The notes under the pieces are model-generated. The model saw only the letters and a list, made by a program, of their open reading frames with translations, was not told where the DNA came from and made no database searches. Shown piece by piece: positions 1,691 through 52,915 of a DNA stretch of 64,000 bases. The translations under genes and the position numbers were made by a program. How positions within the stretch are numbered: the first letter of the stretch is position 1; each line of letters opens with the position of its first letter. This DNA comes from an uncultured bacterium (GTDB lineage: Bacteria > Oederibacteriota > Oederibacteriia > Oederibacteriales > Oederibacteriaceae): positions 243,666 to 307,665 of the forward strand of contig OZ218778.1 of assembly GCA_965112635.1 (NCBI GenBank), in the 5' to 3' direction.

Positions 1691-1939
1691 ACTGCTCTCC
1701 TTTCGAGAAATTTAAAAAATGATAGCGTTATAGATGTTCTATTATTATAGGCCTTTGCTCTTTCGTCTAATTTTTGTTGGAAAATGGAAGGTTATTTTTT
1801 TTGATGTGAGATTATACATTAAAAAATAATAAATTGTAAACATCCCCGGCATATATATATAAAGAAGAACAATAGGCCAATTTACATAGGTTTACTGGGT
1901 CAAATACCAGCGGAAAAATTATGGGTTGAAGGACCTGAA

Positions 1940-1969
1940 CATGCTCAAGCATGCGTGCTTAAACACGTG
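1940..1969. promoter_or_regulatory. composite palindromic motif copy A (CATGCTCAAGCATG + degenerate CGTGCTTAAACACG), ~250 bp upstream of the AsrA-like gene
   Basis: read directly; related copies at 2051-2091 and 9151-9178. Confidence 0.4.
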
Positions 1970-2050
1970 GTCGTTCAACGGACACACTCTTTTTACTCTT
2001 TATAGCCCTCGTATGAGGGGTCCCCGAACAGGCTCACGTCATCACTGACG

Positions 2051-2091
2051 CATGCTTGAGCATGCGCCTGCGCACCTCGTGCTAAAGCACG
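2051..2091. promoter_or_regulatory. composite palindromic motif copy B (CATGCTTGAGCATG, 13-nt spacer, CGTGCTAAAGCACG)
   Basis: first half is the exact reverse complement of copy A first half; second half is the exact reverse complement of the 14-mer at 9165-9178. Confidence 0.4.
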
Positions 2092-2245
2092 TGCACCTTG
2101 AGGGCATGAGGGCGTGGGGATACCTTAAATCCTTATGGGGTTGTGCCCCGGATGTCTGCCCTACAAAGCTTTAGCGAAGTAGGGATGCTGGGAGGGGGTG
2201 TATTTGATCTAGTAAATACTGTTGGATTCTACCGGTTGGATTGCT

Positions 2246-3196
2246 TCAGCTTCCGTGCTCGTCCAGCCAGCGCAAGAGCTGGCTGATGCTTCCGGTCGCC
2301 AGGCTGATGTTGGTATCCGCCGCGCCGTAGTAAAGATTAATGGTATCCTTGTCGGCCCCCAGCGTGTATCCGCAGGGGAACACCACATTGGCCACATCGC
2401 CATGGCGCTCGTAGTCGGCCTCAGGACTAAAGATCCAGGAGTCGCCGCGCTTCAGGCATTGGTCCGGCTTGTCGAGCGCCAAGAGCGCCGCGCCCAGGCG
2501 GTAGATACACCCGGCCGCCGTTTGCCGGACCCCGTGATAAAGCATCAGCCAACCCCGGGAAGTCTCGATCAAAGGCGGAGAAAGCCCGATCTTGTTGGCG
2601 TCCCACCAGGCTCCTTTACGCGCCTTGAGGACGGGCTTATGGTCTCCCCAGTTCTGCAGGTCAGGCGAGTAGGAGATCCAGATGTCCGCCTGCGAGTAGG
2701 TCGTCGGGCGGTGGATGAGCGCGTAACTGCCGTTGATCCTGCGCGGCAGCAGAGTCGCGTCTTTGTCTTCCGGCTGCATGATCACGCCATAACGCTTGAA
2801 AACGCGGAAATCCTGCGTCTCGGCCAGTACCACGGCCGGGCCGCTTTTGCTGTAAGCGGTATACGCGACCATATAACTGCCGGACTCCTCAAAGTAGGTG
2901 ATCCGCGGGTCCTCGATCCCCCAAAGCTCCTCGGGATAATTCTGGGGATCAGGGCTGAGCGTGGGTTTTTGGTCAACGACCCACCCGTCTATCCCGTTCT
3001 TCGAGCGCGCCGCGCACAGGTGGGAATGCCCCCGCCGGTCCTCTACCCTGCAGAGCAGAAGCGTGGTGCCGTCCAAGAGCTTGATGGCGCCGGCGTTGAA
3101 CACCGTATGGGCCGGATACGGCCAGTCATCCGCCGTCAGGATTGGATTTTTTTCATGCCGTTTAAAAAGGACCTCATACCCGTGTTCCATGCTCAT
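2246..3196 (-). CDS. glycoside hydrolase family 130 protein (mannoside phosphorylase-like)
   Basis: 316-aa ORF with GH130-like signature (WGIEDPRITYFEESGSYMVAYTAYS); start overlaps stop of upstream gene (ATGA). Confidence 0.85.
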   Translation of the reverse strand: MSMEHGYEVLFKRHEKNPILTADDWPYPAHTVFNAGAIKLLDGTTLLLCRVEDRRGHSHLCAARSKNGIDGWVVDQKPTLSPDPQNYPEELWGIEDPRITYFEESGSYMVAYTAYSKSGPAVVLAETQDFRVFKRYGVIMQPEDKDATLLPRRINGSYALIHRPTTYSQADIWISYSPDLQNWGDHKPVLKARKGAWWDANKIGLSPPLIETSRGWLMLYHGVRQTAAGCIYRLGAALLALDKPDQCLKRGDSWIFSPEADYERHGDVANVVFPCGYTLGADKDTINLYYGAADTNISLATGSISQLLRWLDEHGS

Positions 3197-5451
3197 GGTT
3201 TTTTCCCCCGTCTGACAGTTTTTTCGCTGACAACGCCGATCCCGCCGCTGGAGTACATTTCCGCGAGCGCCAGCAGGAACGAGAGCGTGGACTCCGCGCC
3301 CTGGTTCGCGTTCACGGTGTCGCTATGGAGCCCGTCGCAGCAGCCGCCGGTCGATGGGTCGTAAAGTGATTGCTGCAAATGATTTTCCCCCAGCATCCAG
3401 TTAAAAGCCCGCCGCGCCTGCTTCGTCCACTGGCCGTCTCCGGTGACCCGCCCTGCCTCCAGGCAGGCCGAGACCATGCCGCAGGCTTCCACGGGCTGCT
3501 GGTCAAAAGCGGCCTTGGGCCCGCCCCGGCTGTAGAAGCCGTTCGAACCGACCGGCGCGAAAGTATCATCCCCGGAGCGCTGCACGGAGACCAGCCACCC
3601 CAGCGATCTCAAGCCCGCTTCCTTCATGATTTCATCCCCCATCAGGTTCCCGGATACGAGGAGCGCCTGGGATAACCGCGCGTTGCAGTAGGTCACGCGG
3701 TCCTCGAACCAGGGCCAGTCGCTGGTGCTGGTCCGCTGAAAAAGTCCCAGGAGACGCTCCGCCAGGGTTTTTCTCACCGACTGGATGCCGCTGTCCCCCT
3801 GGAACGCGCGAAGGTATTCGTCGATCCCTAAAAGCGCGTACGCCCAGGCGCGCGGGCTGGAAAAACCCTGGACCGCGGGTAAAGCCGCGTAAAACAAGCT
3901 GCTACTGAGGCTCTGTTGTCCGGGATCGCTGGCGCGGCCGACCACGCTTCCCAGCGCCCAAAGGGCCCGGCCATGGCTTTCTTCGGAGCCGCATTCTTCG
4001 GCCCACTGCCGGGAATAGGTGAGGAAGTTACGGAACCGGCCCTTTTCCGCGTTGAACGCGTTATTGACAAAGGCCAGATAACGGGAGGCCAGAGGAGTCA
4101 CCTCTTTGGCCGTGACCGTGCCCGCGTCCTCCAGGAGCGTCATCAGGAGCAAGGCGCGCGCGTTGTCGTCAAGGCAGTAGCCGTCCTGGTACCGCGGGAT
4201 GCTGAAGGCGGCGTGCTGCAATACTCCTGTCCCGTCCGTCATCAGCCGGAGGTGCTCTAGGTTGATCTCCGGAAGGTCAGCCGGCTGTTCCGCCAGCGTC
4301 CTGGCCTGGAACACCGTGCGCCGCCGGTCCGCTTGCCCGGATACGGCGCGTTCAAAACTCTTTAGATAGCTGGCCGCGACGCTGGGCCACAGCATTTCGC
4401 GGCCCAGGCTGGCGGCGCGCTGGCGCATGGCCAGCCGTTTCGCGTCATTACCCAGAAGGTCGTTGACGGCGTCCGCGATAGCCTTGGAGTCTTTCAAGGG
4501 GACCAGGACCCCGACGCCGTCGCGGAGCAGCTCCTGGGCGTGCCAGTAAGGAGTGGAGATGACCGCCCTGCCGGAACCCAGAGCGTAGGCCAGGGTCCCC
4601 GAGGTGGTTTGTTCCATATTAAGATAGGGCGTCACGTAGATGTCCGTCGCGGATAGGAATTCCACGAGCTCGGCCTGGCTCACGAAGCGGTTATGAAAAA
4701 TGATATTGGCGTCCACGCCCAGCCGCTGGGCGCGGTTTTCCAGCCCCAGCCGGTAGATCTCGCCGTGATGCTCTTTGACGTGGGGGTGGGTGGCTCCCAG
4801 CACGATGTAGACCGTGTCCGGATGCCGCCCCAGGATGGCCGGCAGGGCTTCGATGACATACTCGATCCCCTTGTCCGGCGAGAGCAGTCCGAACGTAAGG
4901 AGCACGGATCTGCCCGCCACGCCGAGCTTGTCCTTGCTGAGGGAGTCGAACGGCACGGCCGGTATCCCGTGGGGGATCAAGTCGATCTTGTGGTCCGGGA
5001 CCCCGTAGACCTTTCGGAGCGTCGCGGCGCCGCGCTCGGTCATGACCACGAGGCGCTCGGAAACCTGGACGAGTTCTTCCATCACGGCACGCTGGGGTTC
5101 ATTGGGTTCGCTGAGCAGCGTGTGCAGGGTCGTGACGACCGGCATCCGCAGCTCCCGGAGAAGCACCAGCAAATGGCTGCCGGCCTTGCCTCCGAAGATC
5201 CCGTATTCGTGCTGGACGCAGAGGACATCCACGGCGTTGACGTTCAAAAAATCCGCCGCCCGCCGGTACGAGGCGATATCGCTCTCGGTGATCTCGAAAC
5301 GGACGCGGCCGGAGTAATCATAACGCCGGTCGGCGTCGTTCATGGCCAGCACGAACAGGTCTTTTTCAGGGGATTGGGCCGCGACGGCCTCAGAGAGGTC
5401 ACCAGTGAAAGTGGCGATACCGCACAGGCGCGGGACATAACTGCCCAGCAT
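3193..5451 (-). CDS. GT4 (group 1) glycosyltransferase fused to a ~350-aa C-terminal domain of uncertain family (possibly glycoside-hydrolase-like)
   Basis: 752-aa ORF; N-terminal half has GT4-like architecture; C-terminal half not confidently assigned. Confidence 0.7.
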   Translation of the reverse strand: MLGSYVPRLCGIATFTGDLSEAVAAQSPEKDLFVLAMNDADRRYDYSGRVRFEITESDIASYRRAADFLNVNAVDVLCVQHEYGIFGGKAGSHLLVLLRELRMPVVTTLHTLLSEPNEPQRAVMEELVQVSERLVVMTERGAATLRKVYGVPDHKIDLIPHGIPAVPFDSLSKDKLGVAGRSVLLTFGLLSPDKGIEYVIEALPAILGRHPDTVYIVLGATHPHVKEHHGEIYRLGLENRAQRLGVDANIIFHNRFVSQAELVEFLSATDIYVTPYLNMEQTTSGTLAYALGSGRAVISTPYWHAQELLRDGVGVLVPLKDSKAIADAVNDLLGNDAKRLAMRQRAASLGREMLWPSVAASYLKSFERAVSGQADRRRTVFQARTLAEQPADLPEINLEHLRLMTDGTGVLQHAAFSIPRYQDGYCLDDNARALLLMTLLEDAGTVTAKEVTPLASRYLAFVNNAFNAEKGRFRNFLTYSRQWAEECGSEESHGRALWALGSVVGRASDPGQQSLSSSLFYAALPAVQGFSSPRAWAYALLGIDEYLRAFQGDSGIQSVRKTLAERLLGLFQRTSTSDWPWFEDRVTYCNARLSQALLVSGNLMGDEIMKEAGLRSLGWLVSVQRSGDDTFAPVGSNGFYSRGGPKAAFDQQPVEACGMVSACLEAGRVTGDGQWTKQARRAFNWMLGENHLQQSLYDPSTGGCCDGLHSDTVNANQGAESTLSFLLALAEMYSSGGIGVVSEKTVRRGKKP

Positions 5452-5669: not shown

Positions 5670-5948
5670 TCATTTATATATTTCTCTTCTGTGCCCAATA
5701 TCAATAATAATGACCAACAGCACATCGGATTTGATCATATAAATGATCCGATAACTCCCTACCCGGTAGGAATACTGACCTTTTAAATCCCCATGAAGGG
5801 GCTTGCCCAGATACGGTTCCCTTTCCAGGCCGTGAAGAGCATTGCTGATCCTTTCATAAAGCGGCCTGTCTCGTTTTGCAAGCTTCTTATAAAATTTTTC
5901 TGCATCTTCCTGCAGGACAACAGTGTATTTATTCAATTTCTTTTTCAA
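5670..5948 (-). CDS. type II toxin, RelE/ParE family
   Basis: 92-aa ORF, RelE/ParE-like C-terminus (YRIIYMIKSDVLLVIIIDIGHRREIYK); overlaps upstream antitoxin gene by 20 nt; AT-rich relative to neighbours. Confidence 0.85.
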   Translation of the reverse strand: MKKKLNKYTVVLQEDAEKFYKKLAKRDRPLYERISNALHGLEREPYLGKPLHGDLKGQYSYRVGSYRIIYMIKSDVLLVIIIDIGHRREIYK

Positions 5949-6195
5949 TCTCCTCTAATGGACGCACCTTGCCTTTCTTCACATTTTCCAGTCCCGCTTT
6001 AATTCTTTTCATGGCACTGCGGTCATTCAAAATATCAAGGGTTTCCATCAAGGATTCATAATCCTCATAGCTCATAATTTCAGCCACAGGTTTGCCGTGG
6101 TTCGTGACCGTGACCCTTTCCAATTTATGGTCTATCTTCTTAAGAACGCCGGGCAAGGTTTGCCTCAATTCCCTGACGCTCAAAACATTATTCAT
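5929..6195 (-). CDS. type II antitoxin, Phd/YefM family
   Basis: MNNVLSVRELRQ N-terminus typical of Phd/YefM; GGAGG RBS 8 nt upstream of ATG at 6195. Confidence 0.85.
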   Translation of the reverse strand: MNNVLSVRELRQTLPGVLKKIDHKLERVTVTNHGKPVAEIMSYEDYESLMETLDILNDRSAMKRIKAGLENVKKGKVRPLEEIEKEIE

Positions 6196-6256
6196 CTGCA
6201 ACACCTCCTCATTATGAAAATTTTATGTTAAGTATAGCAGGAAAAGGGTTAATTTG

Positions 6257-6275
6257 GTACACAGATGTGTACACA
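6257..6275. promoter_or_regulatory. palindromic candidate operator of the TA operon (GTACAC-AGAT-GTGTAC, overlapping TGTGTACACA)
   Basis: perfect inverted repeat 62-80 bp upstream of the antitoxin start, next to a TATACT -10-like hexamer on the minus strand. Confidence 0.4.
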
Positions 6276-6307
6276 TTAGGCAAAGGTGTTCTGCCGAAAG
6301 TGCTTTT

Positions 6308-6414
6308 CGACATAAATACGCAAGTAAGGAAACGCATTATTATAACTGGGCTTGCGCTTGTTTTGTCGTAAAGCTATTACGACATAAACACCCTTGAGTG
6401 GAAACGCATATTAA
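6308..6414. repeat. two degenerate ~35-bp direct repeats with 72-bp period (CGACATAAA...GGAAACGCAT)
   Basis: read directly; only two copies, roughly three-quarters identical. Confidence 0.4.
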
Positions 6415-6429
6415 AATCTGCAAGGGTGT

Positions 6430-7479
6430 TTAGCAGATCCTCGGCAGTTGGTCTCCGCTGAGCATGTCCAGGATCCTTCTCACGCCGATTTTGCTCTCCA
6501 GCGTGACCTGGCCCTTGGCGGCATCCAAAACCTTTCCCACCACAGCCGCTTCTTTACCAAGAGGATGGGCCCTCATCAAGTTAAGGGCTTTTTTCTCGTC
6601 TTTTTCCGGCACAAACAAGGCAAACCTGCCCTCATTGGCCACATACAAGGGATCCAGCCCCAGCATTTCACAGGCCGCCTGCACTTGATTGTTTACTGGG
6701 ATGGCCTTTTCTTCCAGGGCTATTTCCCTGCCAGAGGCCTGGGCTATCTCCACCATTGTCGTAGCCAATCCGCCCCGGGTCAGGTCGCGCAAACAATGGA
6801 CCTCGACCTCGGCCTTTAAGAGCTCCAGCACCAGGCCGGACAAGGGAGCGCAGTCGCTCTGGATGGTGGTTTCAAAATTCAACCCTTCCCGGCTGGCCAT
6901 GATGGCCATGCCGTGCCTGCCCAAATCTCCGTTGATGAGGATCTTGTCTCCGGGTTTGATGCTTTTGGGATGGATAACCAGCTTGTGGTCTATGGCTCCC
7001 ACCCCGGCGGTATTGATATACACGCCGTCCCCCTTGCCTTTGTCCACCACTTTGGTGTCACCGGTCACGACCTGCACTCCGGCCTCTTCGGCTGTTTTGG
7101 CCAGGGACTGGACGATTTGCCACAAGGTTTCCATGGCCAAACCTTCTTCCAATATAAAGGAAGCGGAAAGATAGAGCGGCCTGGCCCCGCACATGGCCAG
7201 ATCATTGACCGTGCCGCACACAGCCAGCTTGCCTATATCCCCGCCGGGGAAAAATAAAGGTTTGACCACGAATGAGTCCGAAGTGAAGGCCAGTTTTTCC
7301 CGTGTCGTGGGGAACACCGCGCTGTCGTGCCCTGCTCCAGGCAGGTCATTTTTAAAGGCGGGCAAAAACATTTTTTCGATGAGCTGGTGCATGAGTTTGC
7401 CGCCGCTGCCGTGGCCCAGGGTCACGACCGGATATTGGGCTATGGGGATGGGGCAGGTCAGATTAAATTCTTTAGGCAT
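6430..7479 (-). CDS. hypE: hydrogenase maturation carbamoyl dehydratase HypE
   Basis: HypE-like sequence ending in the characteristic C-terminal PRIC; AAGGAG RBS before ATG at 7479. Confidence 0.9.
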
Positions 7480-7501
7480 AAATATGCTCCTTAAAAATTG
7501 T

Positions 7502-7572
7502 GTCCAAAGTCTCAAGTCCAATGTCCAAAGTTTTTGTGTAACTTTGAACTTTAAACTTTGAACTCGGAACTA
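7502..7572. repeat. hypD-hypE intercistronic repeats (GTCCAAAGT x2, AACTTTGAAC x3) able to form stem-loops
   Basis: read directly in the 105-nt gap between hypD stop and hypE start. Confidence 0.4.
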
Positions 7573-7584
7573 TCATTACTCCAA

Positions 7585-8670
7585 TCAATGCTTCCTATAG
7601 TTGTAATAAGCTGCGCAGGCGCCCTCAGGCGACACCATCGGCGCACCCAGCGGCGTTTCCGGAGTGCAACGCGTGGCAAAAGCCGTGCATTCCTTGGGTT
7701 TTTTGATGCCCTGCAGGACCAGACCGCTGATACACTCGGGGTCTTCGCTCACCGCCAGGTCTTGGAGGTCAAACTTTTTTTCCGCGTCATAGGCCGCATA
7801 CTGGGGCCGCAGACCTAGGCCGCTCAAGGGGATCTCTCCGATACCGCGCCATTTGCGCGGTACGATCTGAAAAACTTCCTTGATGAGTGTCTGGGCAGGT
7901 AGATTGCCCTGCCTCTGGACACTGCGGGTATATTGATTCTCCACTTTGGCTTCGCCTTTTTCCAGTTGAGCGATGCATAGATACAGCCCCTCTAAAATAT
8001 CCACTGGTTCGAACCCCGTGACCACGATGGGAACTTTGAATTTCGCCGCCAGCGGTTCATACTCGGTATAACCCATGACCGTGCACACATGGCCCGCGGC
8101 CAGGAAGCCGTTGATCCTTTGGTTCGGGGAACTCAGGATCGCCTCCATGGCCGGCGGCACCAACACATGAGAGACCAGAATGGAAAAGTTCTTTATCCCC
8201 TGTTCCTTGGCCTGGAAAACCGCCATGGCATTGGCCGGCGCCGTAGTCTCAAACCCCACGGCAAAAAACACCACCTGTTTCCCTGGGTTTTCCCGGGCCA
8301 GCTGGAGACAATCCAGGGGTGAATACACCATGCGCACATCCCCGCCCTGGGCCTTGGCCAACAACAGGTTCTCTTTGGTCCCGGGCACGCGCATCATATC
8401 GCCGAAAGAGCAAAAGATGATGTCAGGCCGATGGGCCAGCTGGATGGCCTTATCGATGAGCTCGACGGGTGTCACGCACACCGGACATCCCGGGCCGTGG
8501 ATCAGGGTGATCCCCTTGGGCAACAGCTCATCCACTCCGTACTTGACGATGGAATGCGTCTGTCCGCCGCACAGTTCCATGATGTTCCAGGGCTTGGTGG
8601 TTATCTTCTGGATAAGTCCGGCGATATGGCGGGCTTGTTCCGGGTCACGGTATTCGTCGATAAATTTCAA
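7585..8670 (-). CDS. hypD: hydrogenase maturation factor HypD
   Basis: 361-aa ORF with HypD motifs (CGGQTHS, GPGCPVC); apparent TTG start overlapping the hypC stop. Confidence 0.9.
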
Positions 8671-8912
8671 CCAATGCCTTCCCTTCCCAGGGCATCCATC
8701 TCACGAAAAGCTTCGTAGACTTTGGCCGCTTCTTTTTCATCCAACCGGCTGATGGCAAAACCCACATGCACATACACATAGTCGCCGACCTTAGCCTCAG
8801 GCACATAGGCCAGGCAGGCCTCTTTGATCACGCCTTCGTAACTCACTTTGCCCATACGGGTCTGGGCGTTCTCTTCAATGCTAATGATCTTACCGGGTAT
8901 GGCTAAACACAT
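8667..8912 (-). CDS. hypC: hydrogenase maturation factor HypC
   Basis: 81-aa ORF starting MCLAIP, the HypC/HupF hallmark. Confidence 0.9.
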
Positions 8913-8974: not shown

Positions 8975-9150
8975 TTATCGTAAAGTGCTTTCAACAACCT
9001 TATTATTATCATTATTTCACGAATCATTAGTCCGGGCAACCGCTTCAAGTATTATCTGATGAGACTTTTTCGGCGGACTAATGAGGTTGACTTTCCCCTC
9101 TGGGCTTGTTAGCTTTTTTTTGCACTGGGCAACAGCCCAGCCCGGAGCGC

Positions 9151-9178
9151 CATGCTCATGCATGCGTGCTTTAGCACG
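9151..9178. promoter_or_regulatory. composite palindromic motif copy C (CATGCTCATGCATG + CGTGCTTTAGCACG), ~240 bp upstream of hypC
   Basis: read directly; related to copies at 1940-1969 and 2051-2091. Confidence 0.4.
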
Positions 9179-9212: not shown

Positions 9213-9252
9213 GTTCGTATGCTATTCTATAAAAAATTAATAGCATACGAAC
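9213..9252. promoter_or_regulatory. candidate NikR operator: perfect 14-bp inverted repeat with 12-bp spacer, containing GTATGC-N19-GCATAC
   Basis: read directly; 50-90 bp upstream of the OMP gene that heads the nikR/nickel-uptake block; overlaps a possible -35 TTGGCA / -10 TATGCT. Confidence 0.45.
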
Positions 9253-10267: not shown

Positions 10268-10684
10268 ATGGCAGGTTTAGTAAGATTTGGCGTATCCCTG
10301 GAAAAAGAACTTCTCAAAAAATTTGATCGACTTATCACCCAAAAACACTACACCAACCGCTCCGAAGCCCTGCGCGACCTCATCCGGGAAGAATTGGTCA
10401 AAGAACAATGGAACCAGGGAGACGAAGTGGCCGGCGCCATTACCCTGATCTACAACCACCACCATAGAGACCTGACCGATAAATTGACTAACATTCAACA
10501 TGATTATGGAGACTGCATCCTGTCTTCCCAGCACATCCACCTAGACCACCACCACTGCCTGGAGATCATCGCGGTCAAAGGGTCCCCCAGCCAGGCGCAA
10601 AAACTGGCCGACACCCTCCACGCGGTTAAAGGAGTCATGCATTCCAGCCTCAGCATGTCCACCACCGGCAAAGAAATACATTAA
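10268..10684 (+). CDS. nikR: nickel-responsive transcriptional regulator NikR
   Basis: 138-aa ORF: ribbon-helix-helix N-terminus (RFGVSLEKELLKKFD) plus His/Cys-rich C-terminal domain (HHHRD, HLDHHHC). Confidence 0.9.
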   Translation: MAGLVRFGVSLEKELLKKFDRLITQKHYTNRSEALRDLIREELVKEQWNQGDEVAGAITLIYNHHHRDLTDKLTNIQHDYGDCILSSQHIHLDHHHCLEIIAVKGSPSQAQKLADTLHAVKGVMHSSLSMSTTGKEIH

Positions 10685-10816: not shown

Positions 10817-13009
10817 ATGATGAAAAGCAATAAAACCAGGTTTTCCTTGGTCGGTTTTATTTTTTGTTCGCTATTGTTGTCCAACCCTAGCTGGGGGCAG
10901 GATGGCGCCAACAGCACCCTGGATGCATTGCGTCATGACAGCAGCCCTGCGGCAGTTACTAAGAGCGCTATACCTGTAAGTGTGACCAAGACCGCTGCAA
11001 CGGAGTCAACCGTGGCCGGTGAAGAAGTAGTGGTTAGAGGCAGGGCTGCCAACTTGCTGGGACTGGCAGACTCGGCCATGCAGGGCAGTGTCAGCCAGGA
11101 AGACCTGAGCCACCGTGCTTTGCTCAGGACGGGAGAAGTTATGGAAGCCGTACCCGGACTGCTCATCACACAGCACAGTGGTGACGGCAAAGCCAACCAG
11201 TATTTCAGCCGAGGTTTTAATCTTGATCACGGCACTGATTTTTCATTCAATGCTGATGATGTTCCTATTAACCTGCCCAGCAATGCCCATGGTCAAGGCT
11301 ATACAGACCTTAATTTCCTCATTCCCGATCTGGTTAAGGAAGTGAACTATTCCAAAGGACTTAATAGCGTTGAATACGGGGAATTTAATACCGCAGGCTC
11401 AGCCAATTTTGTTTATCCCAATACTCTGCCCCAAAATATCGCTTCTCTGACCATGGGAGAATGGGGATATCAGAGAGGGCTTTTGGCCGCATCCAACCCC
11501 TTGGGGTCAGGGAATTTGTTGTACGCCGTGGAAGTTTGCGGTTATGACGGTCCCTGGGATGTCCCGGAAGATAATAAAAAATATAATGGATTGCTTCGCT
11601 ACAGTTATGGAAACTCAGAGAGCAGGTGGGCGATCACGGCATCCCTTTATCAGGCTGCCTGGACCTCCACTGACCAGGTCCCGCAACGAGCGGTGGACGA
11701 GGGTCTGATCGATTTCTGGGGCAGCCTTGATCCGACTGATGGCGGTAAGACAAAACGCTACAGCGTTTGGGCAAGCTGGAATGGCCAATCCCAGGACTGC
11801 CAGTCCATGGTCATGGCCTATGAAACCTATTTTCATATGAATCTTTGGAGCAACTTCACCTATTTTACTGACGATCCTGTTCACGGCGACCAGTTTGAAC
11901 AGGAAGATGAGCGGTATATCACCGGCGCTAAAGCCAGGCAGATATACAACAACACTATCGCCGGGCTGGCCATGAAAAATGAGATCGGCGCGGATTTCCG
12001 CAATGATGACGTGCCCATCCTGGGCCTTTACGATACGGAGGCTCATATTCCGTGGCAAACCGTCCAGCTTAACCAGATGGTCCAAACCAGCGGAGCTCCC
12101 TATGCGGAAAATACCACTTATTGGACACCATGGCTGAGAAGTATTTTGGGATACCGTCACGACTTCTTCCATTTCAAAGTTAACGGTGCTACTCCTGCTA
12201 CCAGCGGAGAGGCTGATGCCAACATAGCCGAACCTAAGGTAGCCCTGGTGCTGCGGCCTTATGAAGGGCCGGTGGAGCTGTACGCCAACTATGGCTGGGG
12301 TTTTCACTCCAATGACGCGCGTATCATTGCGCCGGATGCTTTAAATCAGTTAAGCATTATGGGCAACAATGTGAACACCGCTCCCCTGGTCCACGCGGAG
12401 GGAGAAGAAGTAGGCGCCCGTTTCGGCTGGCAGAATTTATTTGAATCCACGGTATCTTTATGGCGCCTGCATCTGGATTCTGAATTGACTTTTGACGGAG
12501 ACGCGGCCGCTCCCAGTCCCAATGGGCCTTCTACGCGTAATGGGGTGGAATGGTCCAATTCCTTGAGGCCTAAACCCTTTTTCCTGGATTTCGACTACTC
12601 CTGGTGCCAGGCGCGGTTTGATCAGACTGCGTTAGATGATGATGGAGAGCACCCGGGTGAGTATGTGCCGGAGGCTCCGGTAAACATGGCTACAGCCACT
12701 TTAGGCACTGATCCCATAGAAGGCTGGTCTGCGGACTGTCGTTTGCGTTACTTTGGGGCAAGGCCGCTGGTACCGGATAATTCGGTGCAATCCAGCGACC
12801 TGACACTGGTAAGTCTTCGTGTCAGCCGTCAGCTGACGGAAAATCAATCCATTTTCTTCGATATTTTTAATCTTTTTAACCAGCGGGGTTATGATATTTC
12901 TTATTATTACGCCACAAGCGTACAGTCGGGAGCCCCGTCGATCCCGGACATAAACAGTAAACCCGCTGAGCCGCGGTCTTTGCGTGTGACCTGGCAGGAC
13001 CGTTTCTAA
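10817..13009 (+). CDS. TonB-dependent outer-membrane receptor, probably nickel/metal uptake by context
   Basis: signal peptide, plug-domain-like region, ~700-aa barrel ending in F; GAGGAGG RBS before ATG at 10817 (track ORF starts at 10763). Confidence 0.85.
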   Translation: MMKSNKTRFSLVGFIFCSLLLSNPSWGQDGANSTLDALRHDSSPAAVTKSAIPVSVTKTAATESTVAGEEVVVRGRAANLLGLADSAMQGSVSQEDLSHRALLRTGEVMEAVPGLLITQHSGDGKANQYFSRGFNLDHGTDFSFNADDVPINLPSNAHGQGYTDLNFLIPDLVKEVNYSKGLNSVEYGEFNTAGSANFVYPNTLPQNIASLTMGEWGYQRGLLAASNPLGSGNLLYAVEVCGYDGPWDVPEDNKKYNGLLRYSYGNSESRWAITASLYQAAWTSTDQVPQRAVDEGLIDFWGSLDPTDGGKTKRYSVWASWNGQSQDCQSMVMAYETYFHMNLWSNFTYFTDDPVHGDQFEQEDERYITGAKARQIYNNTIAGLAMKNEIGADFRNDDVPILGLYDTEAHIPWQTVQLNQMVQTSGAPYAENTTYWTPWLRSILGYRHDFFHFKVNGATPATSGEADANIAEPKVALVLRPYEGPVELYANYGWGFHSNDARIIAPDALNQLSIMGNNVNTAPLVHAEGEEVGARFGWQNLFESTVSLWRLHLDSELTFDGDAAAPSPNGPSTRNGVEWSNSLRPKPFFLDFDYSWCQARFDQTALDDDGEHPGEYVPEAPVNMATATLGTDPIEGWSADCRLRYFGARPLVPDNSVQSSDLTLVSLRVSRQLTENQSIFFDIFNLFNQRGYDISYYYATSVQSGAPSIPDINSKPAEPRSLRVTWQDRF

Positions 13010-13037
13010 CTAAATAATTAAGGAGGAAATTAACTAG

Positions 13038-13661
13038 ATGCAGACTATTTTGCAAAACTTGGCTCTGATCGGGGACGTCTGGGTCATCTACCTTTTGATC
13101 GCCGCAAGCCTGCTTTCTTTGGCGGTCATGGTGGAAAGATGGATGGTCTTCTCGCGTAACAGGGGAGATGTCACGGTTCTAATGGACGGATTAGGCGAAC
13201 GCCTGGAAAAAAAGGATATCAAGGGGGCTCTGGAATTTACCCGTGGTTTTCCCAATGTGGAGGGCAGGGTTGCCGTGGCGGGACTGGAGCATTTTTCCAA
13301 AGGCGCGGCTTCCGTGGAAGAGGCCATGTCCGCCAGGATCATCCGAGAGCGGAAGCATTTGGGGAAAAAACTGATCATCCTCAGCACGCTGGGCAATAAC
13401 GCGCCCTTTATCGGGTTGTTCGGGACCGTGCTCGGTATCATCAAAGCGTTCAACGACCTTGCGGTCAGCGGAAGCTCGGGGGTGTCCGTGGTCATGGCCG
13501 GCATTTCCTCGGCTCTGATCGCCACGGCATTCGGCATCGCGGTGGCTGTCCCCGCCGTCATAGCCAATAATTATTTCCGCAACCGGCTCAACGAGGTCAG
13601 ATCCAACGCCGAAGAGGTGTCCAAAATGCTTTTGCTTTACATCAAAGCGCAGGGAAAGTAG
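13038..13661 (+). CDS. exbB: MotA/TolQ/ExbB proton channel protein
   Basis: 207-aa membrane protein with ExbB/TolQ-like TM helices; AGGAGG RBS. Confidence 0.85.
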   Translation: MQTILQNLALIGDVWVIYLLIAASLLSLAVMVERWMVFSRNRGDVTVLMDGLGERLEKKDIKGALEFTRGFPNVEGRVAVAGLEHFSKGAASVEEAMSARIIRERKHLGKKLIILSTLGNNAPFIGLFGTVLGIIKAFNDLAVSGSSGVSVVMAGISSALIATAFGIAVAVPAVIANNYFRNRLNEVRSNAEEVSKMLLLYIKAQGK

Positions 13662-30485: not shown

Positions 30486-30600
30486 TATTACCCTCCATTG
30501 TTCGAAGTGTCCTGTAAATTGGTTAATTCTTGCGCTTTAACGGCGTAAAGTCAAGCCAACGGCCTGTTCTGCAAAACACCTAATTCTAGCTTGACTTTTT

Positions 30601-30620
30601 AACTATACGCCCGTATAGTT
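30601..30620. promoter_or_regulatory. candidate TetR operator palindrome AACTATAC-GCCC-GTATAGTT
   Basis: perfect 8-bp arms 30 bp upstream of the TetR start. Confidence 0.4.
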
Positions 30621-30650
30621 ATACAGAGGTATAGATATAAAGGAGGCACA

Positions 30651-31292
30651 ATGCCTAGACCTTCGAGTGATTCTGATAAAAAACTTATCCAGGCAGCTTT
30701 GGAACTGCTGGACCAGACTGGTTTTAGCGGCCTAAAACTAAGGCAGGTGGCCGCTAAAGCCAAGGTCAACCTGGGCATGTTCCATTACCACTTCAAAACT
30801 AAGGAAGATTTTGAGGCTAAAGTTCTGGAAGCGGTCTACGAGAGTATGTTCAGCAAGCTCAGCCTTGAATCAACCGGCCCTGAACCTGGCCTGGAGCGTC
30901 TGAGGAAGGCCCTGTTCACCTTTGGCCAGTTCACCCGGCAGCACCGCCGCATAGTCCTGGGCCTTTTGCACGATGCCATGAACGGCCACAAGGGCATCCT
31001 GCAGTTCGCTCAAAAGAATTTTCCCCGCCATATCAAAGTCCTAGTTGACCTCATCCAGGAATGCCAACAACAGGGCTCTTTAGAAAAGTCGGACCCCATG
31101 GACGCCCTGATCTTTTTAATGAGTGCTATCAACCTGGCCAATGCCATTTCCGGCATACTGGAAAAAACTGAGGAACATAAACTCTTCTCCTTCAAGCTCA
31201 AGCTCATCCAGTCCCGCTTGATCTCCGACCAAGCCATCCAGCGCCGGGTGGACCTGGCTCTCAAAGCCCTGTCCCCGGCCAAAGGAGCCTGA
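30651..31292 (+). CDS. TetR/AcrR-family transcriptional regulator
   Basis: N-terminal HTH (FSGLKLRQVAAKAKVNLGMFHYHF), ~210 aa; AGGAGG RBS. Confidence 0.85.
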   Translation: MPRPSSDSDKKLIQAALELLDQTGFSGLKLRQVAAKAKVNLGMFHYHFKTKEDFEAKVLEAVYESMFSKLSLESTGPEPGLERLRKALFTFGQFTRQHRRIVLGLLHDAMNGHKGILQFAQKNFPRHIKVLVDLIQECQQQGSLEKSDPMDALIFLMSAINLANAISGILEKTEEHKLFSFKLKLIQSRLISDQAIQRRVDLALKALSPAKGA

Positions 31293-42453: not shown

Positions 42454-42849
42454 CTAGACACAGACTGTTTCCCCAATACCCAGCAGGTCTTTGACCTGAT
42501 CGATAAAACTCCTATTATCTATGGGCTTGGAAATATAGGAGTCAAACCCGGCTGCCCATATCTTTTCCTGTTCGTCTCTCATAGCCAGGGCAGTCAGGGC
42601 CACGACCTTCACGCCCGCGGTCCTTTGCTCACCCCGGATCCGCTTAAAAATGGTAAAGCCGTCCACCTCCGGCAGATTGATATCCAGCAGGACGAGGTCG
42701 GGGACACAGCTTTCCAGCACCCGGAAGCACTCCTCCGCGTTGAACGCCTTCAGCACCCTGAGCCCCTGCATTTCCAGCAGGGCCTCGGCAAGCCTCATAT
42801 TCGCTTCATCATCCTCTACCATCAATACTGTTTTGCTTTGCGTGAACAT
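42454..42849 (-). CDS. single-domain response regulator (receiver only)
   Basis: 131-aa CheY-like receiver (LMVEDDE, LLDINLPEVDG, YISKP). Confidence 0.8.
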   Translation of the reverse strand: MFTQSKTVLMVEDDEANMRLAEALLEMQGLRVLKAFNAEECFRVLESCVPDLVLLDINLPEVDGFTIFKRIRGEQRTAGVKVVALTALAMRDEQEKIWAAGFDSYISKPIDNRSFIDQVKDLLGIGETVCV

Positions 42850-45022
42850 GAACTCCTCCTTGTAGGATCAAAATTCTTTCCGCAGTTTCCGTGCCGCAAA
42901 CTTCTCCCGGTGCCGGCTGCGGCCTGACTGCGCTGAGATCCGGTAAAGCTAAATAAAACCGGGAACCCTTGTCTTTGCCCTTGCTCTCGCACCACAACCG
43001 GCCTTTCTGCATATCCGCTATTTTCTTGGAAAGCGCCAGGCCCAGCCCCGTGCCTCCATACTGGCGGTTGAGGCCGCCCTGGACCTGTTCAAATTCATTA
43101 AATATCCTGAGCTTGTCTTTTTCTTCGATACCGATGCCCGTATCCTCAACGCAGATGCTTATCTCCCCGTTGTTTCCGCCCGCGGTCAGGCGGATCTCCC
43201 CGCCTTCCGGGGTGAATTTGACCGCGTTGGAGAGCAGGTTATTGACCACCTGCTTTATCATGCGTTCATCCGCATAAACAACGCCCGCTTCCCTGGCCAC
43301 CTGCAAAGAAACTTTGATCCTCTTTTTCTGGATCTTATCCGTCACCATCATCAGACTGGACTCCAGGAGCTTTCTGAGATCCACCTCGCTCGCCTCCGAG
43401 GTCACTTTGCCGGTCTCTATCTTGTTCAGGTCCAGAATATCGTTGATCAGGGAAAGCAGATGCTTGCCGCTATCGTAGATATTTAGGGCATACTCGGACT
43501 GCTTAGCGGTCAGCGGCCCGACATCGCCCGACTTCATCATGTCCGAAAACCCGATGATGGCATTAAGGGGAGTTCGTAATTCATGGGACATCGTGGCCAG
43601 GAAAGCCGACTTGGCCCGGTTGGCGGATTCGGCCGTTTCACGGCCCAGATTGGCCTCTTCAATTTTTTTGCTCAAGGTGATATCCCTGACCGTGGCCTGC
43701 AGGAATTGCTTACCCTCCAGTTCCATGCGGGTCAGAAGTACGGTAGCGGGGAAATCCTCGCCGTTTATCCGTTTGTGTGTCCACTCAAATAGGTTATTTC
43801 CCTCCCGCATCGCTTTTTCGATCATTTCCTTGGCCTTTTCGCCGGATGGCCGGCCGTCCGGCTGTTTTTCCGGGGATAACTTACCCGGTCTGTAGGAATT
43901 AAAATCCTTTGAGTCCTTTGCTCCGAACATCCTGACCGTTTCCGGATTTCCTGAGGTGAAATTCCAGTCAGGCGGCTTCAGGGTCATCAGGGCGTCGCTG
44001 GAATATTCAAATAGATAACGGTATCTTTCTTCGCTTTTTCTCAGGGATTCTTCCATGGTTCGGCGGGAGGTGGCGTCACGGAATATCCCCATCATATACT
44101 GCTTGCCTTCCAGTTCGATTTGGTGGGAACTGATATCCGCGTAAATAAGGGAGCCATCCTTTCGTTTAAAAGGCACATCTGTTTCCATCAAAACCTGGTT
44201 TTTGGGGCCTTTATCAAATCTTTCCGCGGCACTCCCAAAAGCCTGGGGAGGATGGATATCCCTGACGCCCATGCGAGTCAATTCCTCATGCCCGTAGGCC
44301 AGGAGTTGGCCCATGCTCTGGTTCGCGTCAAATATTTTCATGGTTTGGGGGTCCACCAGCATGATGCCGTCCGAGGCATGGTCAAAAATGGCCTTGAACT
44401 TGCCTTCCCCCAGGCTCAAGGCTTTGCTGGTCCTGTTCCGCTCGGTGAGGACCATCCTTTGGGCGATAAGAAAACCAATAAAGACGAAGAACCCGACCAC
44501 CCCAAAGACATTGTTCCGGGCCTGGATGTTTTTTTGCATCGTGGAAACGAACAGCGACCTGATAGTGTTCCTCAAGGTGAAAGCATTTTTGAATACTTCA
44601 TCGGCCTGCCGGGGACCCGGTTGTTCCAAAGTCCCTGGGGTGGCTGCGCCATATTGGACCGGCGTATCCTGGATCCACAGGGGGGACATACCGGACAGGG
44701 TGGCCTCAAAGTTTTTTTGGACTTTTTGCAGGAGCGCCTTGTCCTGGGCGCTGGTAAAACTTTTGAGGGCTGTAGCCAGCAGGCCCTCTAAAGTGCTGGT
44801 TTTTTTATCCCACTCGGTTTTTAGTTGCTGGCTGGGATACAGCAGGTACCTGGCCCTCAGGACGATCCTGGCCGAAACCGTGTTGCTCATTTCATCGGCG
44901 AGCTGGAGGTTCCGGCTGGCCAGGGTAATATCCCTCAGGGTCCAGGCCAGGGCCAGGAGCATGAGCACGACCCCTCCCGCATATATCCATCCATTGTCTT
45001 TCATCCATTTATCCATCCTCAT
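42809..45022 (-). CDS. membrane-anchored PAS sensor histidine kinase
   Basis: N-terminal TM, PAS domains, H-box SHELRTPLNAI, HATPase motifs. Confidence 0.8.
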   Translation of the reverse strand: MRMDKWMKDNGWIYAGGVVLMLLALAWTLRDITLASRNLQLADEMSNTVSARIVLRARYLLYPSQQLKTEWDKKTSTLEGLLATALKSFTSAQDKALLQKVQKNFEATLSGMSPLWIQDTPVQYGAATPGTLEQPGPRQADEVFKNAFTLRNTIRSLFVSTMQKNIQARNNVFGVVGFFVFIGFLIAQRMVLTERNRTSKALSLGEGKFKAIFDHASDGIMLVDPQTMKIFDANQSMGQLLAYGHEELTRMGVRDIHPPQAFGSAAERFDKGPKNQVLMETDVPFKRKDGSLIYADISSHQIELEGKQYMMGIFRDATSRRTMEESLRKSEERYRYLFEYSSDALMTLKPPDWNFTSGNPETVRMFGAKDSKDFNSYRPGKLSPEKQPDGRPSGEKAKEMIEKAMREGNNLFEWTHKRINGEDFPATVLLTRMELEGKQFLQATVRDITLSKKIEEANLGRETAESANRAKSAFLATMSHELRTPLNAIIGFSDMMKSGDVGPLTAKQSEYALNIYDSGKHLLSLINDILDLNKIETGKVTSEASEVDLRKLLESSLMMVTDKIQKKRIKVSLQVAREAGVVYADERMIKQVVNNLLSNAVKFTPEGGEIRLTAGGNNGEISICVEDTGIGIEEKDKLRIFNEFEQVQGGLNRQYGGTGLGLALSKKIADMQKGRLWCESKGKDKGSRFYLALPDLSAVRPQPAPGEVCGTETAERILILQGGVHVHAKQNSIDGRG

Positions 45023-45065
45023 ATTCCTGTCCCCCTTCCCAAAATAGCCATGACCCTTTGATGCA

Positions 45066-46631
45066 TCATTGGAATTCTTCCTTACCGGCCATCACCATCT
45101 GGAAGGCCTTGGCCTCTTCCCGGCGGCCTAAAGAAATCAGCGGTTTAACAAAGGAAAAAATGGTCTTTTTTTCACTGGCCGCAGCCAGGGGCAGGCTAAA
45201 ACTTATGGAATTGTCCCCCTTGGAGGGAAAATCCACCTTGATTTCGCCCTGATGCGACTCCACGATCCTCTTGGCTATGGCCAGCCCCAGGCCTATGCCC
45301 GGGATATCGCCCGCGCCCTCTTTGTCCACCTGATAAAAAGTGTCAAAGATCTTCTGCCGTTCCTCGCAGGGTATGCCGGGGCCGTTATCGCCCACAGAGA
45401 ACCTGACCAGGCCTTGCTCCTGCCTGGCCGTGAAAGTGAGCTTGACTATCTTTTGGTCGTTGAATTTCACGGCGTTCTCAATGAGGTTGCTCAACAGTAT
45501 CTCCAGCATCACCGGGCTGAGCCGCAGCCCCACCATGCTGCCCGGCAGGTCGAATGTGTATTCGATCTCTTTATCCGTATGCTTTTTGAGGATGGCCTTC
45601 ACGATTCCCTCTATCCGGTCCATATACACAGAGCCCTCTCCGACACCTTTGCCCCCGTAACGGGCCGCCGTGTCCACATTGACAAAATCCGTTATTTTTT
45701 CCATCACCTTTGAAAACTCGGCCAATCTTTTCATCGTGGCCTCTGCGGAGTCCCTGAGCCGGGTATTTTTCATGGCCACAAAGGCCTCTTTCATCTGGGC
45801 CAAATGGCCCAGGCTCAGGTTCAGGGGAGCATGCACTTTTTGGGCGATAAGGTTGAGAAAATTTGCTTTCCGGTGCTTTTCTCCCCTCTGTTCCGTCACG
45901 TCATGCAAAATGATGACCACGCTGGTTGTCCTGCCCTGGCTGTCCCTGATCACCCTGGAACTGAAACTAAGTATCAGCGGCCAGTAGGTGGGGAACTCGG
46001 GCCGCTCCAGGTCAAAATCAAGGTCGTCAATGACCAGGTCGGTCTTCAGCTCGCCTTCATAATGGACCTTAAAGGTCTGGTGCAGGCGGTCCAGCCAGTC
46101 CGGGGACGGCTCCACAAAGCTCAGCAGCTCCCGGGCCAGCTGGTTGGACCGGACGATCCTCAGGTCCGCGTCGCAGACGATCAACCCTTCACTGGCCCGC
46201 TCAATGACCTTTTCCAGCTTTTTCTTTTCATCCACCCGGGAGCGTTCATTGTGGAGCTGGAGGAGCGTCTTGACCTTGGCCAGCACTTCATTGATATCAA
46301 AAGGCTTGGAAATAAAATCATCGCATCCCGCCTCTATCCCGGAGATCCGGGCGCTGGTTTCGGCCAGCGCCGTGATCATCACCACGGGCAGCGTCTTAGT
46401 GCTTTCCGCGGCCCGGATCTTCCGCGTCACCTCGAAACCATCCATATCCGGCATCATCACGTCCAGCAGGACCAGGTCTATTTTTTCATAGGTGAGTTTC
46501 CTTAGGGCCTGCCCCCCGTTTTCCGCGGTGACGACCTCGTAACCCTTGGACTTGAACAAAGTGGCCAGGAGCTCCACATTAAGGGGCTCGTCGTCCACCA
46601 CCAAAATCGTGGTTTTTTCAACTATATTCAT
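45066..46631 (-). CDS. receiver-PAS-histidine-kinase-like fusion protein
   Basis: N-terminal receiver (ILVVDDEP, LLDVMMPDMDG), central PAS, C-terminal HATPase-like domain; ATG 46631 overlaps upstream stop (ATGA). Confidence 0.75.
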   Translation of the reverse strand: MNIVEKTTILVVDDEPLNVELLATLFKSKGYEVVTAENGGQALRKLTYEKIDLVLLDVMMPDMDGFEVTRKIRAAESTKTLPVVMITALAETSARISGIEAGCDDFISKPFDINEVLAKVKTLLQLHNERSRVDEKKKLEKVIERASEGLIVCDADLRIVRSNQLARELLSFVEPSPDWLDRLHQTFKVHYEGELKTDLVIDDLDFDLERPEFPTYWPLILSFSSRVIRDSQGRTTSVVIILHDVTEQRGEKHRKANFLNLIAQKVHAPLNLSLGHLAQMKEAFVAMKNTRLRDSAEATMKRLAEFSKVMEKITDFVNVDTAARYGGKGVGEGSVYMDRIEGIVKAILKKHTDKEIEYTFDLPGSMVGLRLSPVMLEILLSNLIENAVKFNDQKIVKLTFTARQEQGLVRFSVGDNGPGIPCEERQKIFDTFYQVDKEGAGDIPGIGLGLAIAKRIVESHQGEIKVDFPSKGDNSISFSLPLAAASEKKTIFSFVKPLISLGRREEAKAFQMVMAGKEEFQ

Positions 46632-48103
46632 TGCTTTTCCTTCTCCTGACAGCAAGTTGCCTCAAAAATACCGGCGAGCATCCGGCCTTTCTCGTCGGCA
46701 TCTCCCGGCTGGTAGCTTTTGCCCGATACCCCGGACCGGCCCACGGGCAGATGGATATAAAAAATGGTCCCCTGTTCCTGGGATGTTTTATAAAAGATAT
46801 GACCCTTGTGCGCTTCCACGATCTCCCGGCAGATGGACAGCCCCAGTCCCGCGGCCCGCTCCGCGGTTTTGGTGGTAAAGAACGGCTCAAATATCCTGCC
46901 GCGTATCTCCTCCGCGATGCCCGGACCCCTGTCCTTGACGCTGATTTGGACCTTGTCCTCGCCCAGATGGTCGGCCGCCAGCGAGGTCCTTATTTCTATG
47001 ATGCCATCCTTTTGAACGAGCGAGATGGCCTGGGCCGCGTTGTGGATGAGATTAAGGAAGACCTGCTGCATCTTCAGCTCATCGCAGCGGACCGGGGGCA
47101 GGTCCAAGGCCGGTTCAAAGACCAGTTTGATGCCGTGCATGGTCAGGATATTCTGGACGATCTGGATGCTCCGCCTCAGGCAAAGGTTGATGTCCAATGT
47201 CTCCAGGCCGGGCTCATTGTTCACGGACAGGCTGATGGTCCGCTTGACCATCACCTGGCACTGGGTCCCTTCGCGGATGATGTTGTCCGCGGCTAGCATC
47301 CTGCCCTCCGGGCCCAGGTATTCCTGCTGGAATTTTTCCGCCTCCCGGACCATCAGGGTCAGGGAATCATTGACGCTCTCGGCCATGCCGTGCAGTATTT
47401 CCCCCAGGGTGGCCATGCGCTGGGTGCGGTCCAGCCGGACCTGCGCCATCTTCACTTCCCTGGTCAGCTTCTCGCTGAGCTGGCGGCTGTTCTCGGACTG
47501 CTTCCTGAACCCGCGTTCCTGCTCCATCAGGAAGCTGTAGAAGATGGTCAGGACAAAGATAAAGGGGATGCGTATCAAAAAGGTCGTCTCCATCAGGCTC
47601 TGGCTCATGATGCCCGTGGAATGCAGGACCATCAGCGCGTACACGCCCGAGACGACCCCAGCGATCAGGAGGTTTTCCAGCAGGTTGCGCCCAATGGCCA
47701 CCATAAAGATAAGGAGGAAATAGGCCAGGTAAAGGTCGGTATCAAATTTACGGAGCAGGAGGATGGCCAGGGTGATGACAGCCGTGTCAAAAATGAACAG
47801 CACCAGGTTTTGCCAGGCCTGGTCAAAACGCGCCAGCCTGGAAACAGTCACCCAGATATTGGACGCGGCGTAGCAGGTCAGCAGAAGGGCCAGTAGAACC
47901 AAGTTCCAAAAATGCATTCCCCGGCCGGCGTAGATCATAAAAAGGGTGAGGGTCAGGAGCACCATCCAGCGGAGCATGAGGATGGCCCGCTTGGTACCCT
48001 GGCTGCCTTCCTGCTTCACGGTCATGCCTCGGAACAACTTAAGGGCCTGTTCACGGGCTCCATACAGGACACCCTTCAGCCGACTTGCCAAAACCTGTTC
48101 CAT
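46628..48103 (-). CDS. sensor histidine kinase with polytopic membrane N-terminal domain
   Basis: ~5 TM helices then HisKA/HATPase (NLIHNAAQA, DRGPGI, GLGLSI). Confidence 0.8.
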   Translation of the reverse strand: MEQVLASRLKGVLYGAREQALKLFRGMTVKQEGSQGTKRAILMLRWMVLLTLTLFMIYAGRGMHFWNLVLLALLLTCYAASNIWVTVSRLARFDQAWQNLVLFIFDTAVITLAILLLRKFDTDLYLAYFLLIFMVAIGRNLLENLLIAGVVSGVYALMVLHSTGIMSQSLMETTFLIRIPFIFVLTIFYSFLMEQERGFRKQSENSRQLSEKLTREVKMAQVRLDRTQRMATLGEILHGMAESVNDSLTLMVREAEKFQQEYLGPEGRMLAADNIIREGTQCQVMVKRTISLSVNNEPGLETLDINLCLRRSIQIVQNILTMHGIKLVFEPALDLPPVRCDELKMQQVFLNLIHNAAQAISLVQKDGIIEIRTSLAADHLGEDKVQISVKDRGPGIAEEIRGRIFEPFFTTKTAERAAGLGLSICREIVEAHKGHIFYKTSQEQGTIFYIHLPVGRSGVSGKSYQPGDADEKGRMLAGIFEATCCQEKEKQ

Positions 48104-48369
48104 ACTGCCTCCCCCTTCGCATGCGAATGGTTAACAACATAGTCAACACTATCATTTGCGGGATAAAGGCAGAAGGAGCCAGGGCTGTAAATACATTGAT
48201 TTTTAAAGGGTAATTAGCTGTCCTGGAGCAGGAGATAATTGGAGTATTGTTGAGAAAAAGCTATTTCATACCTCATTTCAGCAAGTACCCCTTTTTGTCC
48301 ACTTGATGAAATGAGCCTACCACCCCATTTTCTCTGTTCAATGTTGTTTCTCTAGTTCAGGGTTCTGAC

Positions 48370-51081: not shown

Positions 51082-51094
51082 TTTTTCCTGCGTC

Positions 51095-51544: not shown

Positions 51545-51559
51545 TTTCCCCTCCTCCTA

Positions 51560-52655: not shown

Positions 52656-52712
52656 TTCTTATCTCCTTGCTGGCTGCCTGGCCGCGTTCCCTGGCCCTTT
52701 CAGGCCAAGGCT

Positions 52713-52895: not shown

Positions 52896-52901
52896 TTTCT
52901 A

Positions 52902-52915
52902 CCCCCCCCCCCCCC
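52902..52915. repeat. C14 homopolymer (G14 on the minus strand) followed by A7, 6 nt upstream of the remnant ATG
   Basis: read directly. Confidence 0.9.

Follow-up and report, generated by a model that had tools for sequence, protein, structure and literature searches.

The window, which is the whole 64,000-nucleotide stretch of DNA analysed here, begins within a group 3b-type [NiFe]-hydrogenase operon whose first gene is hydB (539-1690, - strand), encoding a sulfhydrogenase beta-like Fe-S subunit. The operon extends past the left end of the window in the order hydB-hoxI-like-hydG-hydD-hydA-hycI-hypF, and the products encoded after hydB on the contig are a 155-aa cNMP-binding protein, an AsrB-like gamma subunit, the small and large [NiFe] subunits, the HycI protease and HypF. 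The original prediction had described this unit as an AsrA-like Fe-S operon; the presence of hydB, hycI and hypF corrects that annotation to hydrogenase. The best NCBIfam model for the 539-1690 product is sulfhydrogenase HydB, which ranks above AsrA, and HydB homologues carry the JGI name sulfhydrogenase beta. Given that the supposed AsrA-like operon is of the group 3b hydrogenase type, it serves the same [NiFe]-hydrogenase as the hypCDE unit, which strengthens the earlier idea of an upstream site shared by the two.

The second gene of the hyd operon (61-528, - strand) encodes the 155-aa protein, which consists of a cNMP-binding domain only and represents a conserved HoxI-like subunit. HoxI has been described as the cNMP-domain subunit of bidirectional hydrogenases (PMC12319191), and the 61-528 product resembles it. 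Proteins of 153-160 aa with this single domain are found between hydB and hydG in archaeal and bacterial group 3b-type operons, with 62-69% identity.

The hypCDE maturation operon occupies 6430-8912 on the - strand, and the identities of hypC (8667-8912), hypD (7585-8670) and hypE (6430-7521) were confirmed. A PhdYeFM antitoxin/ParE toxin pair (5670-6204, - strand) is interposed between the hyp and hyd operons, with hypE on one side and the GT4-GH130 genes on the other. Divergently from hypC, a + strand operon starting at 9305 encodes an OMP-like protein, NikR, a TonB-dependent receptor, ExbB/ExbD/TonB and CbiMQO, and looks like a nickel-uptake system on the basis of its gene content. In the window, the 307-aa OMP-like gene is interrupted by an extra A at 9839. 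A frameshift in the ENA contig divides the [NiFe] large-subunit gene into products of 274 and 120 aa (12092-13386 of the fetched piece), and an ABC ATPase gene of that contig is likewise split (3090-4023), the latter being intact in the Logan assembly (3091-4023). Single-base indels between the assemblies are probably long-read errors; hydA may also be genuinely broken.

Upstream of the two hydrogenase units we found six 14-bp palindromes of the form CRTGCT-NN-AGCAYG, at 1940-1967, 2051-2064, 2078-2091 and 9151-9178. They are of two types, A boxes with CATGCT arms and B boxes with CGTGCT arms, and together they make up three copies of a composite in which A precedes B on the + strand in every case. 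Read in the direction of the genes, CGTGCT-NN-AGCACG comes first and CATGCT-NN-AGCATG second, with the same order and orientation at both loci. Each box contains 5-6 of 7 symmetric pairs and is best read as a 6-2-6 dyad.

Copy 1 (1940-1967) reads on the + strand CATGCTCAAGCATG followed directly by CGTGCTTAAACACG. Its A box, proximal to hydB, is CATGCT-CA-AGCATG (1940-1953), and its abutting B box is CGTGCT-TA-AACACG (1954-1967), with one arm mismatch. Copy 2 comprises, on the + strand, CATGCTTGAGCATG at 2051-2064 (CATGCT-TG-AGCATG, the exact reverse complement of the A box of copy 1) and, 13 nt further on, CGTGCTAAAGCACG at 2078-2091 (CGTGCT-AA-AGCACG). An additional 14-bp palindrome, CGTCA-TCAC-TGACG (2037-2050), abuts the A box of this copy. 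Copy 3 (9151-9178), with CATGCTCATGCATG abutting CGTGCTTTAGCACG on the + strand, consists of an A box, CATGCT-CA-TGCATG (9151-9164), located 239 bp upstream of hypC, and a B box, CGTGCT-TT-AGCACG (9165-9178), located 127 bp upstream of the ATG of the divergent + strand gene (9305). The two A boxes of the hyd locus lie 111 bp apart, centre to centre. Furthermore, 1940-1969 and 2035-2064 constitute a 30-nt inverted repeat with 80% complementarity and a 65-nt spacer, of which the right arm is made up of the 2037-2050 palindrome and the A box of copy 2. This pair folds as one long hairpin (z = -4.1), while the hypC locus has a single composite with no inverted partner arm.

The sequence check bears out the positions at which the original prediction had placed the motif, the exact reverse complementarity of the 14-mers at 2078-2091 and 9165-9178, and the distances of 250 bp and 239 bp to the start codons of hydB (ATG 1690) and hypC (ATG 8912). 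The predicted consensus recurs as well, albeit with three amendments: its form for the first box misses copy 2 (centre TGA), its second box ends in AACACG instead of AGCACG in copy 1, and the A and B boxes of the distal hyd copy, although in the expected order, are 13 nt apart and not abutting.

That three composites were spotted by eye, and at two loci only, could raise the suspicion that they are short palindromes arising by chance. The counts effectively refute this explanation, to which we attach almost no probability: in the 64-kb window, 5 perfect CRTGC-N4-GCAYG boxes were observed, all of them at the hyd and hypC loci, against 0.31 expected; none of 400 first-order Markov simulations reached 5 boxes; and about 0.006 pairs of 28-mers with 25/28 identity would be expected in the window. 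No further box was found in the 64-kb window or in approximately 16 kb of flanking contig. The joined 79.9 kb correspond to about 3% of a genome of at least 2.9 Mb, so that the two loci are a small sample. With length-weighted random placement in intergenic regions, the probability of hitting exactly these two regions is approximately 0.014. Both regions rank among the longest intergenic ones of the stretch.

With regard to the differences between copies, six columns of the boxes vary; each of them lies within central positions 7-10, and the arms contain none (P = 7.4e-5). This indicates that the arms are under constraint and that the copies are not decaying relics. Invariant arms and free centres are the pattern expected if a protein contacted the arms and left the spacer free. 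The resemblance between the hyd and hypC loci does not extend past the 28-nt composite, so that the composite does not belong to a larger mobile element. Across two independent assemblies of the organism, which otherwise differ by single-base indels, the motif regions are identical.

The main rival of a regulatory reading, which we regard as unlikely, is that the boxes are dispersed short extragenic palindromes of the REP/REPIN kind, spread by copying, with at most a generic action on mRNA ends or DNA structure and a coincidental placement. Several features would suit such an origin. Each box forms a hairpin, palindromes of similar size are known as dispersed repeats (PMC5317091), the inverted pair at 1940-1969 and 2035-2064 has the layout of a REPIN, and the composite appears to be copied as a unit, with its A-then-B order kept. 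In addition, the hyd copies follow the GT4-GH130 genes, which are on the same strand, the length of the two intergenic regions points the same way, and the copy count covers only about 80 kb of the genome.

Nevertheless, the distribution of the boxes is not that of a typical dispersed repeat. Both of the loci that carry them in 80 kb are directly upstream of hydrogenase units, and the hypC composite lies in a divergent, promoter-bearing intergenic region. REP-like palindromes are rare in divergent promoter regions, as argued previously (PMC5317091). REP elements prefer 3' ends and convergent regions and avoid divergent promoters, whereas here one locus is divergent, the other is stop-to-start, and neither of the two convergent intergenic regions contains a box. 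Random decay of copies would not confine variation to the box centres, and two abutting 14-nt palindromes differ from the typical single REP hairpin of 20-40 nt. Moreover, no transposase or RAYT-like gene was seen among the called genes of the 80 kb, no plasmid match was obtained, no related copy was found in 185,579 genomes or in JGI metagenomes, and the hyd and hypC loci share no extended similarity. On the other side, a regulatory reading draws its support from two loci only, and the constant A-then-B order with box-specific sequences in three of three copies might result from a 28-nt unit having been copied, and not from independent selection of sites.

Two further kinds of mobile or switching element were considered and rejected. 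An origin as the end of a MITE or IS was discarded since there is no similarity beyond the 28-nt core, no target-site duplication and no plasmid match, and the flanks of the inverted pair at 1940-2064 differ. An inverton was discarded since no recombinase was found and the hypC copy has no partner arm. A role as intrinsic terminator of the upstream GH130 gene was likewise dropped, none being predicted there.

The composite was also searched for in a collection of 185,579 species, with one genome per species, the window's own species being outside the collection. All 111 matches were unrelated and comprised chance occurrences, a Microvirga repeat and a Chthoniobacterales family. The latter is a hairpin repeat of about 60 nt in Chthoniobacterales/Spartobacteria (cGGAGGGACATGCTTCYGCATGTCC-N-GGACGTGCRGAAGCACGTCCCTCCg), which occurs in several copies per genome and looks REP-like; it holds both stems of the motif by coincidence, and its structure and flanks are unrelated. 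In JGI metagenomes, a single match on a GC-rich contig was judged to be due to chance, and a literature search for the exact box sequences returned unrelated papers only. Every protein checked was a singleton at 90% identity among approximately 15 billion sequences, and the best non-self homologues, which come from many phyla, reached 63% (HydB), 69% (cNMP subunit) and 76% (HypD) identity. The lineage is thus one with no close sequenced relative, as judged from these best protein identities of 63-76%. The loci of the HydB, cNMP-subunit and HypD homologues were archaeal or not syntenic, and contained no boxes. In a KSB1 MAG, which harbours the closest bacterial HydB homologue, the 833-bp intergenic region upstream of the gene (6199-7031 of the fetched locus) is free of A and B boxes; it contains a direct repeat beginning with cccacaacgtcagcctgcggccgtaggctgtgggttc, with copies starting near 6237 and 6433, approximately 196 bp apart.

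The position of the boxes relative to the predicted promoters is similar at both loci. The best sigma-70-like match predicted for hydB is at 1811-1840 (- strand; TTTACA-18-TATAAT, 11/12), and that predicted for hypC is at 9011-9039 (- strand; TTGCCC-17-TG-AATAAT, 9/12). The nearest box edge is located approximately 100 bp (hydB) and 112 bp (hypC) upstream of the predicted -35 hexamer, and both the promoter-hexamer distances and the start-codon distances differ by about one helical turn between the loci. None of the hyd and hypC promoter-like hexamers is overlapped by a box, and the boxes, at approximately -150 to -280 relative to the predicted promoters, are unusually far upstream. We rejected the possibility that they are sigma-54 enhancers (UAS) for an NtrC-type activator, given that no -24/-12 promoter lies downstream of them: no match to TGGCAC-N5-TTGCW better than 3 mismatches occurs between the boxes and either start codon, and sigma-54 promoter matches are not enriched in the window.

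The predicted promoters also bear on whether the boxes could act in RNA, as two tandem 5-bp hairpins in long hyd and hyp 5' leaders that are recognized by a common RNA-binding protein or nuclease. Tandem hairpins do appear in the minimum-free-energy fold of the leader-sense RNA of hypC, the A/G and T/C differences between A and B boxes preserve pairing, and the start-codon distances are similar. However, the boxes are upstream of the best promoter-like sites and would therefore be absent from the transcripts. The hairpins have little stability (z = -1.67 in the hypC region; -5.5 to -8.4 kcal/mol when folded as DNA), no compensatory variation is seen between copies of a given box, and no Rfam 15 covariance model matched the boxes, whether the gathering threshold or E values up to 1 were applied. 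We consider an action in RNA to be highly improbable.

The vicinity of the nickel-uptake operon raises the question of NikR. The enterobacterial NikR site is GTATGA-N16-TCATAC. If the outer half-sites of the composite are read as CATGCT-N16-AGCACG, it becomes a 28-bp inverted repeat that could be a NikR operator, through which nickel would control the hydrogenase and maturation genes. The only regulator gene adjacent to the boxes is indeed nikR (10268-10684); it belongs to the divergent operon that neighbours hypC and lies 1.1 kb from the hypC copy, and its product passes the NCBIfam cut-off. The 28-mers of the form YRTGCT-N16-AGCAYR in the window are the two abutting composites only, with a related TATGCT-N18-AGCATA at 9218-9247. 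Known NikR signals consist of 27-28-bp inverted repeats, and NikR has been predicted to control a hydrogenase operon (PMC545781).

This assignment is nonetheless very doubtful. The N13-16 spacing of NikR half-sites fits the two abutting composites and not the distal hyd copy, in which the 13-nt split places N29 between the outer half-sites and breaks the geometry. NikR does not need the inner half-sites, yet each box is a near-perfect palindrome, and the outer half-sites match the known NikR consensus sequences weakly. A much better candidate lies 35 bp away at 9213-9252, where a perfect 14-nt inverted repeat (GTTCGTATGCTATT-N12-AATAGCATACGAAC; DNA fold z = -7.9) overlaps the + strand promoter-like hexamers of the nickel-uptake operon, TTGGCA(9195)-17-TATGCT(9223), in the -10 region. 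A NikR operator would be expected to overlap the nickel-uptake promoter, whereas 16 bp separate the end of the hypC composite from the -35-like hexamer downstream of it. The palindrome at 9213-9252 is likely to be a NikR operator: its half-sites are more widely spaced, but GTATGC resembles GTATGA of E. coli. Its ATGCT/AGCAT core is shared with the A boxes.

Other regulators of this genome appear to use palindromic operators next to their own genes, the examples being the NikR-like palindrome at 9213-9252 and a TetR-associated one at 30602-30633, and these lend support to an operator reading of the boxes. Upstream of the TetR-family gene (30651-31292), a TTGACT -35-like hexamer is followed by a 20-bp palindrome, AACTATACGCCCGTATAGTT, which overlaps TATAC-AGAG-GTATA (30591-30633). 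The 30591-30633 segment is probably a TetR operator pair for a divergent URO-D gene and the tetR-efflux operon.

At slightly better than even confidence, we favour the interpretation that the composite is a bipartite operator for a putative dimeric regulator co-regulating the structural and maturation genes of the hydrogenase. The shared upstream binding site that had been proposed finds partial support in the dyad symmetry, in targets that belong to the same enzyme, in the constrained arms, in the constant order and orientation, in the promoter-bearing DNA around the hypC copy and in the lack of any other box in about 80 kb; set against this, a dispersed REP-like repeat keeps part of the probability, the boxes are unusually remote from the predicted promoters, and nikR is the sole regulator gene next to them. 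According to the operator interpretation, each of the two 14-bp 6-2-6 dyad boxes would accommodate one dimer of a helix-turn-helix regulator, so that a composite might be occupied by two dimers of one protein, by a tetramer or by two paralogous dimers. With one composite approximately 240 bp upstream of hypCDE and two 250-400 bp upstream of the hyd operon, the genes for the structure and for the maturation of a single enzyme would be switched together, as may the divergent nickel-uptake operon, whose start is 127 bp away from the hypC copy. The regulator could act by upstream activation or by looping between the two hyd composites that are 111 bp apart. Because the boxes are at least 100 bp upstream of the promoter hexamers and do not overlap them, and because of the 111-bp spacing of the A boxes, we infer that upstream activation or looping would be likelier than simple steric repression.

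A bolder version, which we consider rather doubtful, is that the asymmetric A+B composite is the operator of a new regulator dedicated to hydrogenase, a hetero-oligomer or a tetramer recognizing two different palindromes, that links the group 3b hydrogenase, Hyp maturation and TonB-dependent nickel import. If true, cytoplasmic bidirectional hydrogenases would have a new regulon architecture in this deep-branching lineage. Group 3b [NiFe]-hydrogenases occur widely among uncultured bacteria and archaea and, to our knowledge, the bacterial regulation of these and other cytoplasmic bidirectional hydrogenases is largely undescribed. The composite is an ordinary kind of candidate cis-element with a new sequence. 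It provides a concrete 28-bp probe with which the regulator could be fished out, the practical value being modest for a candidate cis-element from one metagenome-assembled lineage.

Among the proteins encoded in the window, two had been suggested as binders. The cNMP-binding protein of the hyd operon is unsuitable: no DNA-binding domain was found in the 61-528 product, and we rejected it as a binder of the boxes because it has no helix-turn-helix domain and is a conserved HoxI-like subunit. The other is the Crp/Fnr-family regulator (56524-57246), the only one in the window. Anaerobic and hydrogenase genes are often under the control of this family, which recognizes sites such as the FNR box TTGAT-N4-ATCAA, and the boxes likewise have a 14-bp 5-N4-5 palindromic form; however, the contact geometry does not fit and the gene is located 47 kb from the boxes. 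CRP/FNR sites have a conserved G at 4.5 bp from the dyad and a TGA core, whereas the boxes have an invariant T at the 4.5-bp position and no TGA core, and they are not at -41.5 or -61.5 of the predicted promoters. The gene lies in a segment (42454-57698) that is dense in PAS histidine kinases, hybrid kinases and stand-alone receivers, and the N-terminal cysteines of its product may indicate redox sensing.

Compared with known systems, the boxes do not cleanly fit any transcription-factor family among NarL/DosR, Crp/Fnr and NikR. They are similar to the NikR operators described previously (PMC545781) in their 28-bp span, in the N16 between outer half-sites and in the adjacent nikR, and differ from them in the inner half-sites, in the split distal copy and in the existence of the better palindrome at 9213-9252. 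The REP/REPIN elements and the 18-nt 7-2-7 REP-like palindrome of Caldithrix abyssi (PMC5317091) are likewise short and extragenic, with varying centres and, as at the hyd locus, an inverted-pair hairpin; in contrast, the boxes occur at two loci in 80 kb, one of them divergent, without a RAYT gene among the called genes of the 80 kb and as two abutting palindromes instead of one hairpin.

A formal resemblance is found with NarL and DosR, since NarL 7-2-7 sites and DosR/DevR boxes (GGGACT-WW-AGTCCC) are tandem palindromes that are bound by dimeric helix-turn-helix regulators and have a CT-NN-AG centre. The boxes have in common with them the 6-2-6 dyad, the CT-NN-AG centre, the presence of several boxes per promoter, the upstream placement and a group 3b hydrogenase as target. 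They differ in their arms, which are CRTG instead of GGGA or TACY, in being putative sites, and in the 14 bp between box centres, which does not place them on one helix face. No gene for a GerE/LuxR-type response regulator was seen in the 80 kb. DosR-family regulators activate the group 3b hydrogenase Hyd3 of Mycobacterium smegmatis under hypoxia. Induction of Hyd3 has been described, together with a DosR-like cluster that adjoins it and is co-induced (PMC2799521).

With respect to the logic of control, the comparison extends to SurR. The archaeal SurR system is based on an unrelated motif, and no SurR homologue was detected in the stretch examined. SurR sites (GTTn3AAC) control the sulfhydrogenase (hydBGDA) of Thermococcales, and the likeness to the present case would lie in the joint control of a group 3b hydrogenase and related genes through a dedicated palindromic operator.
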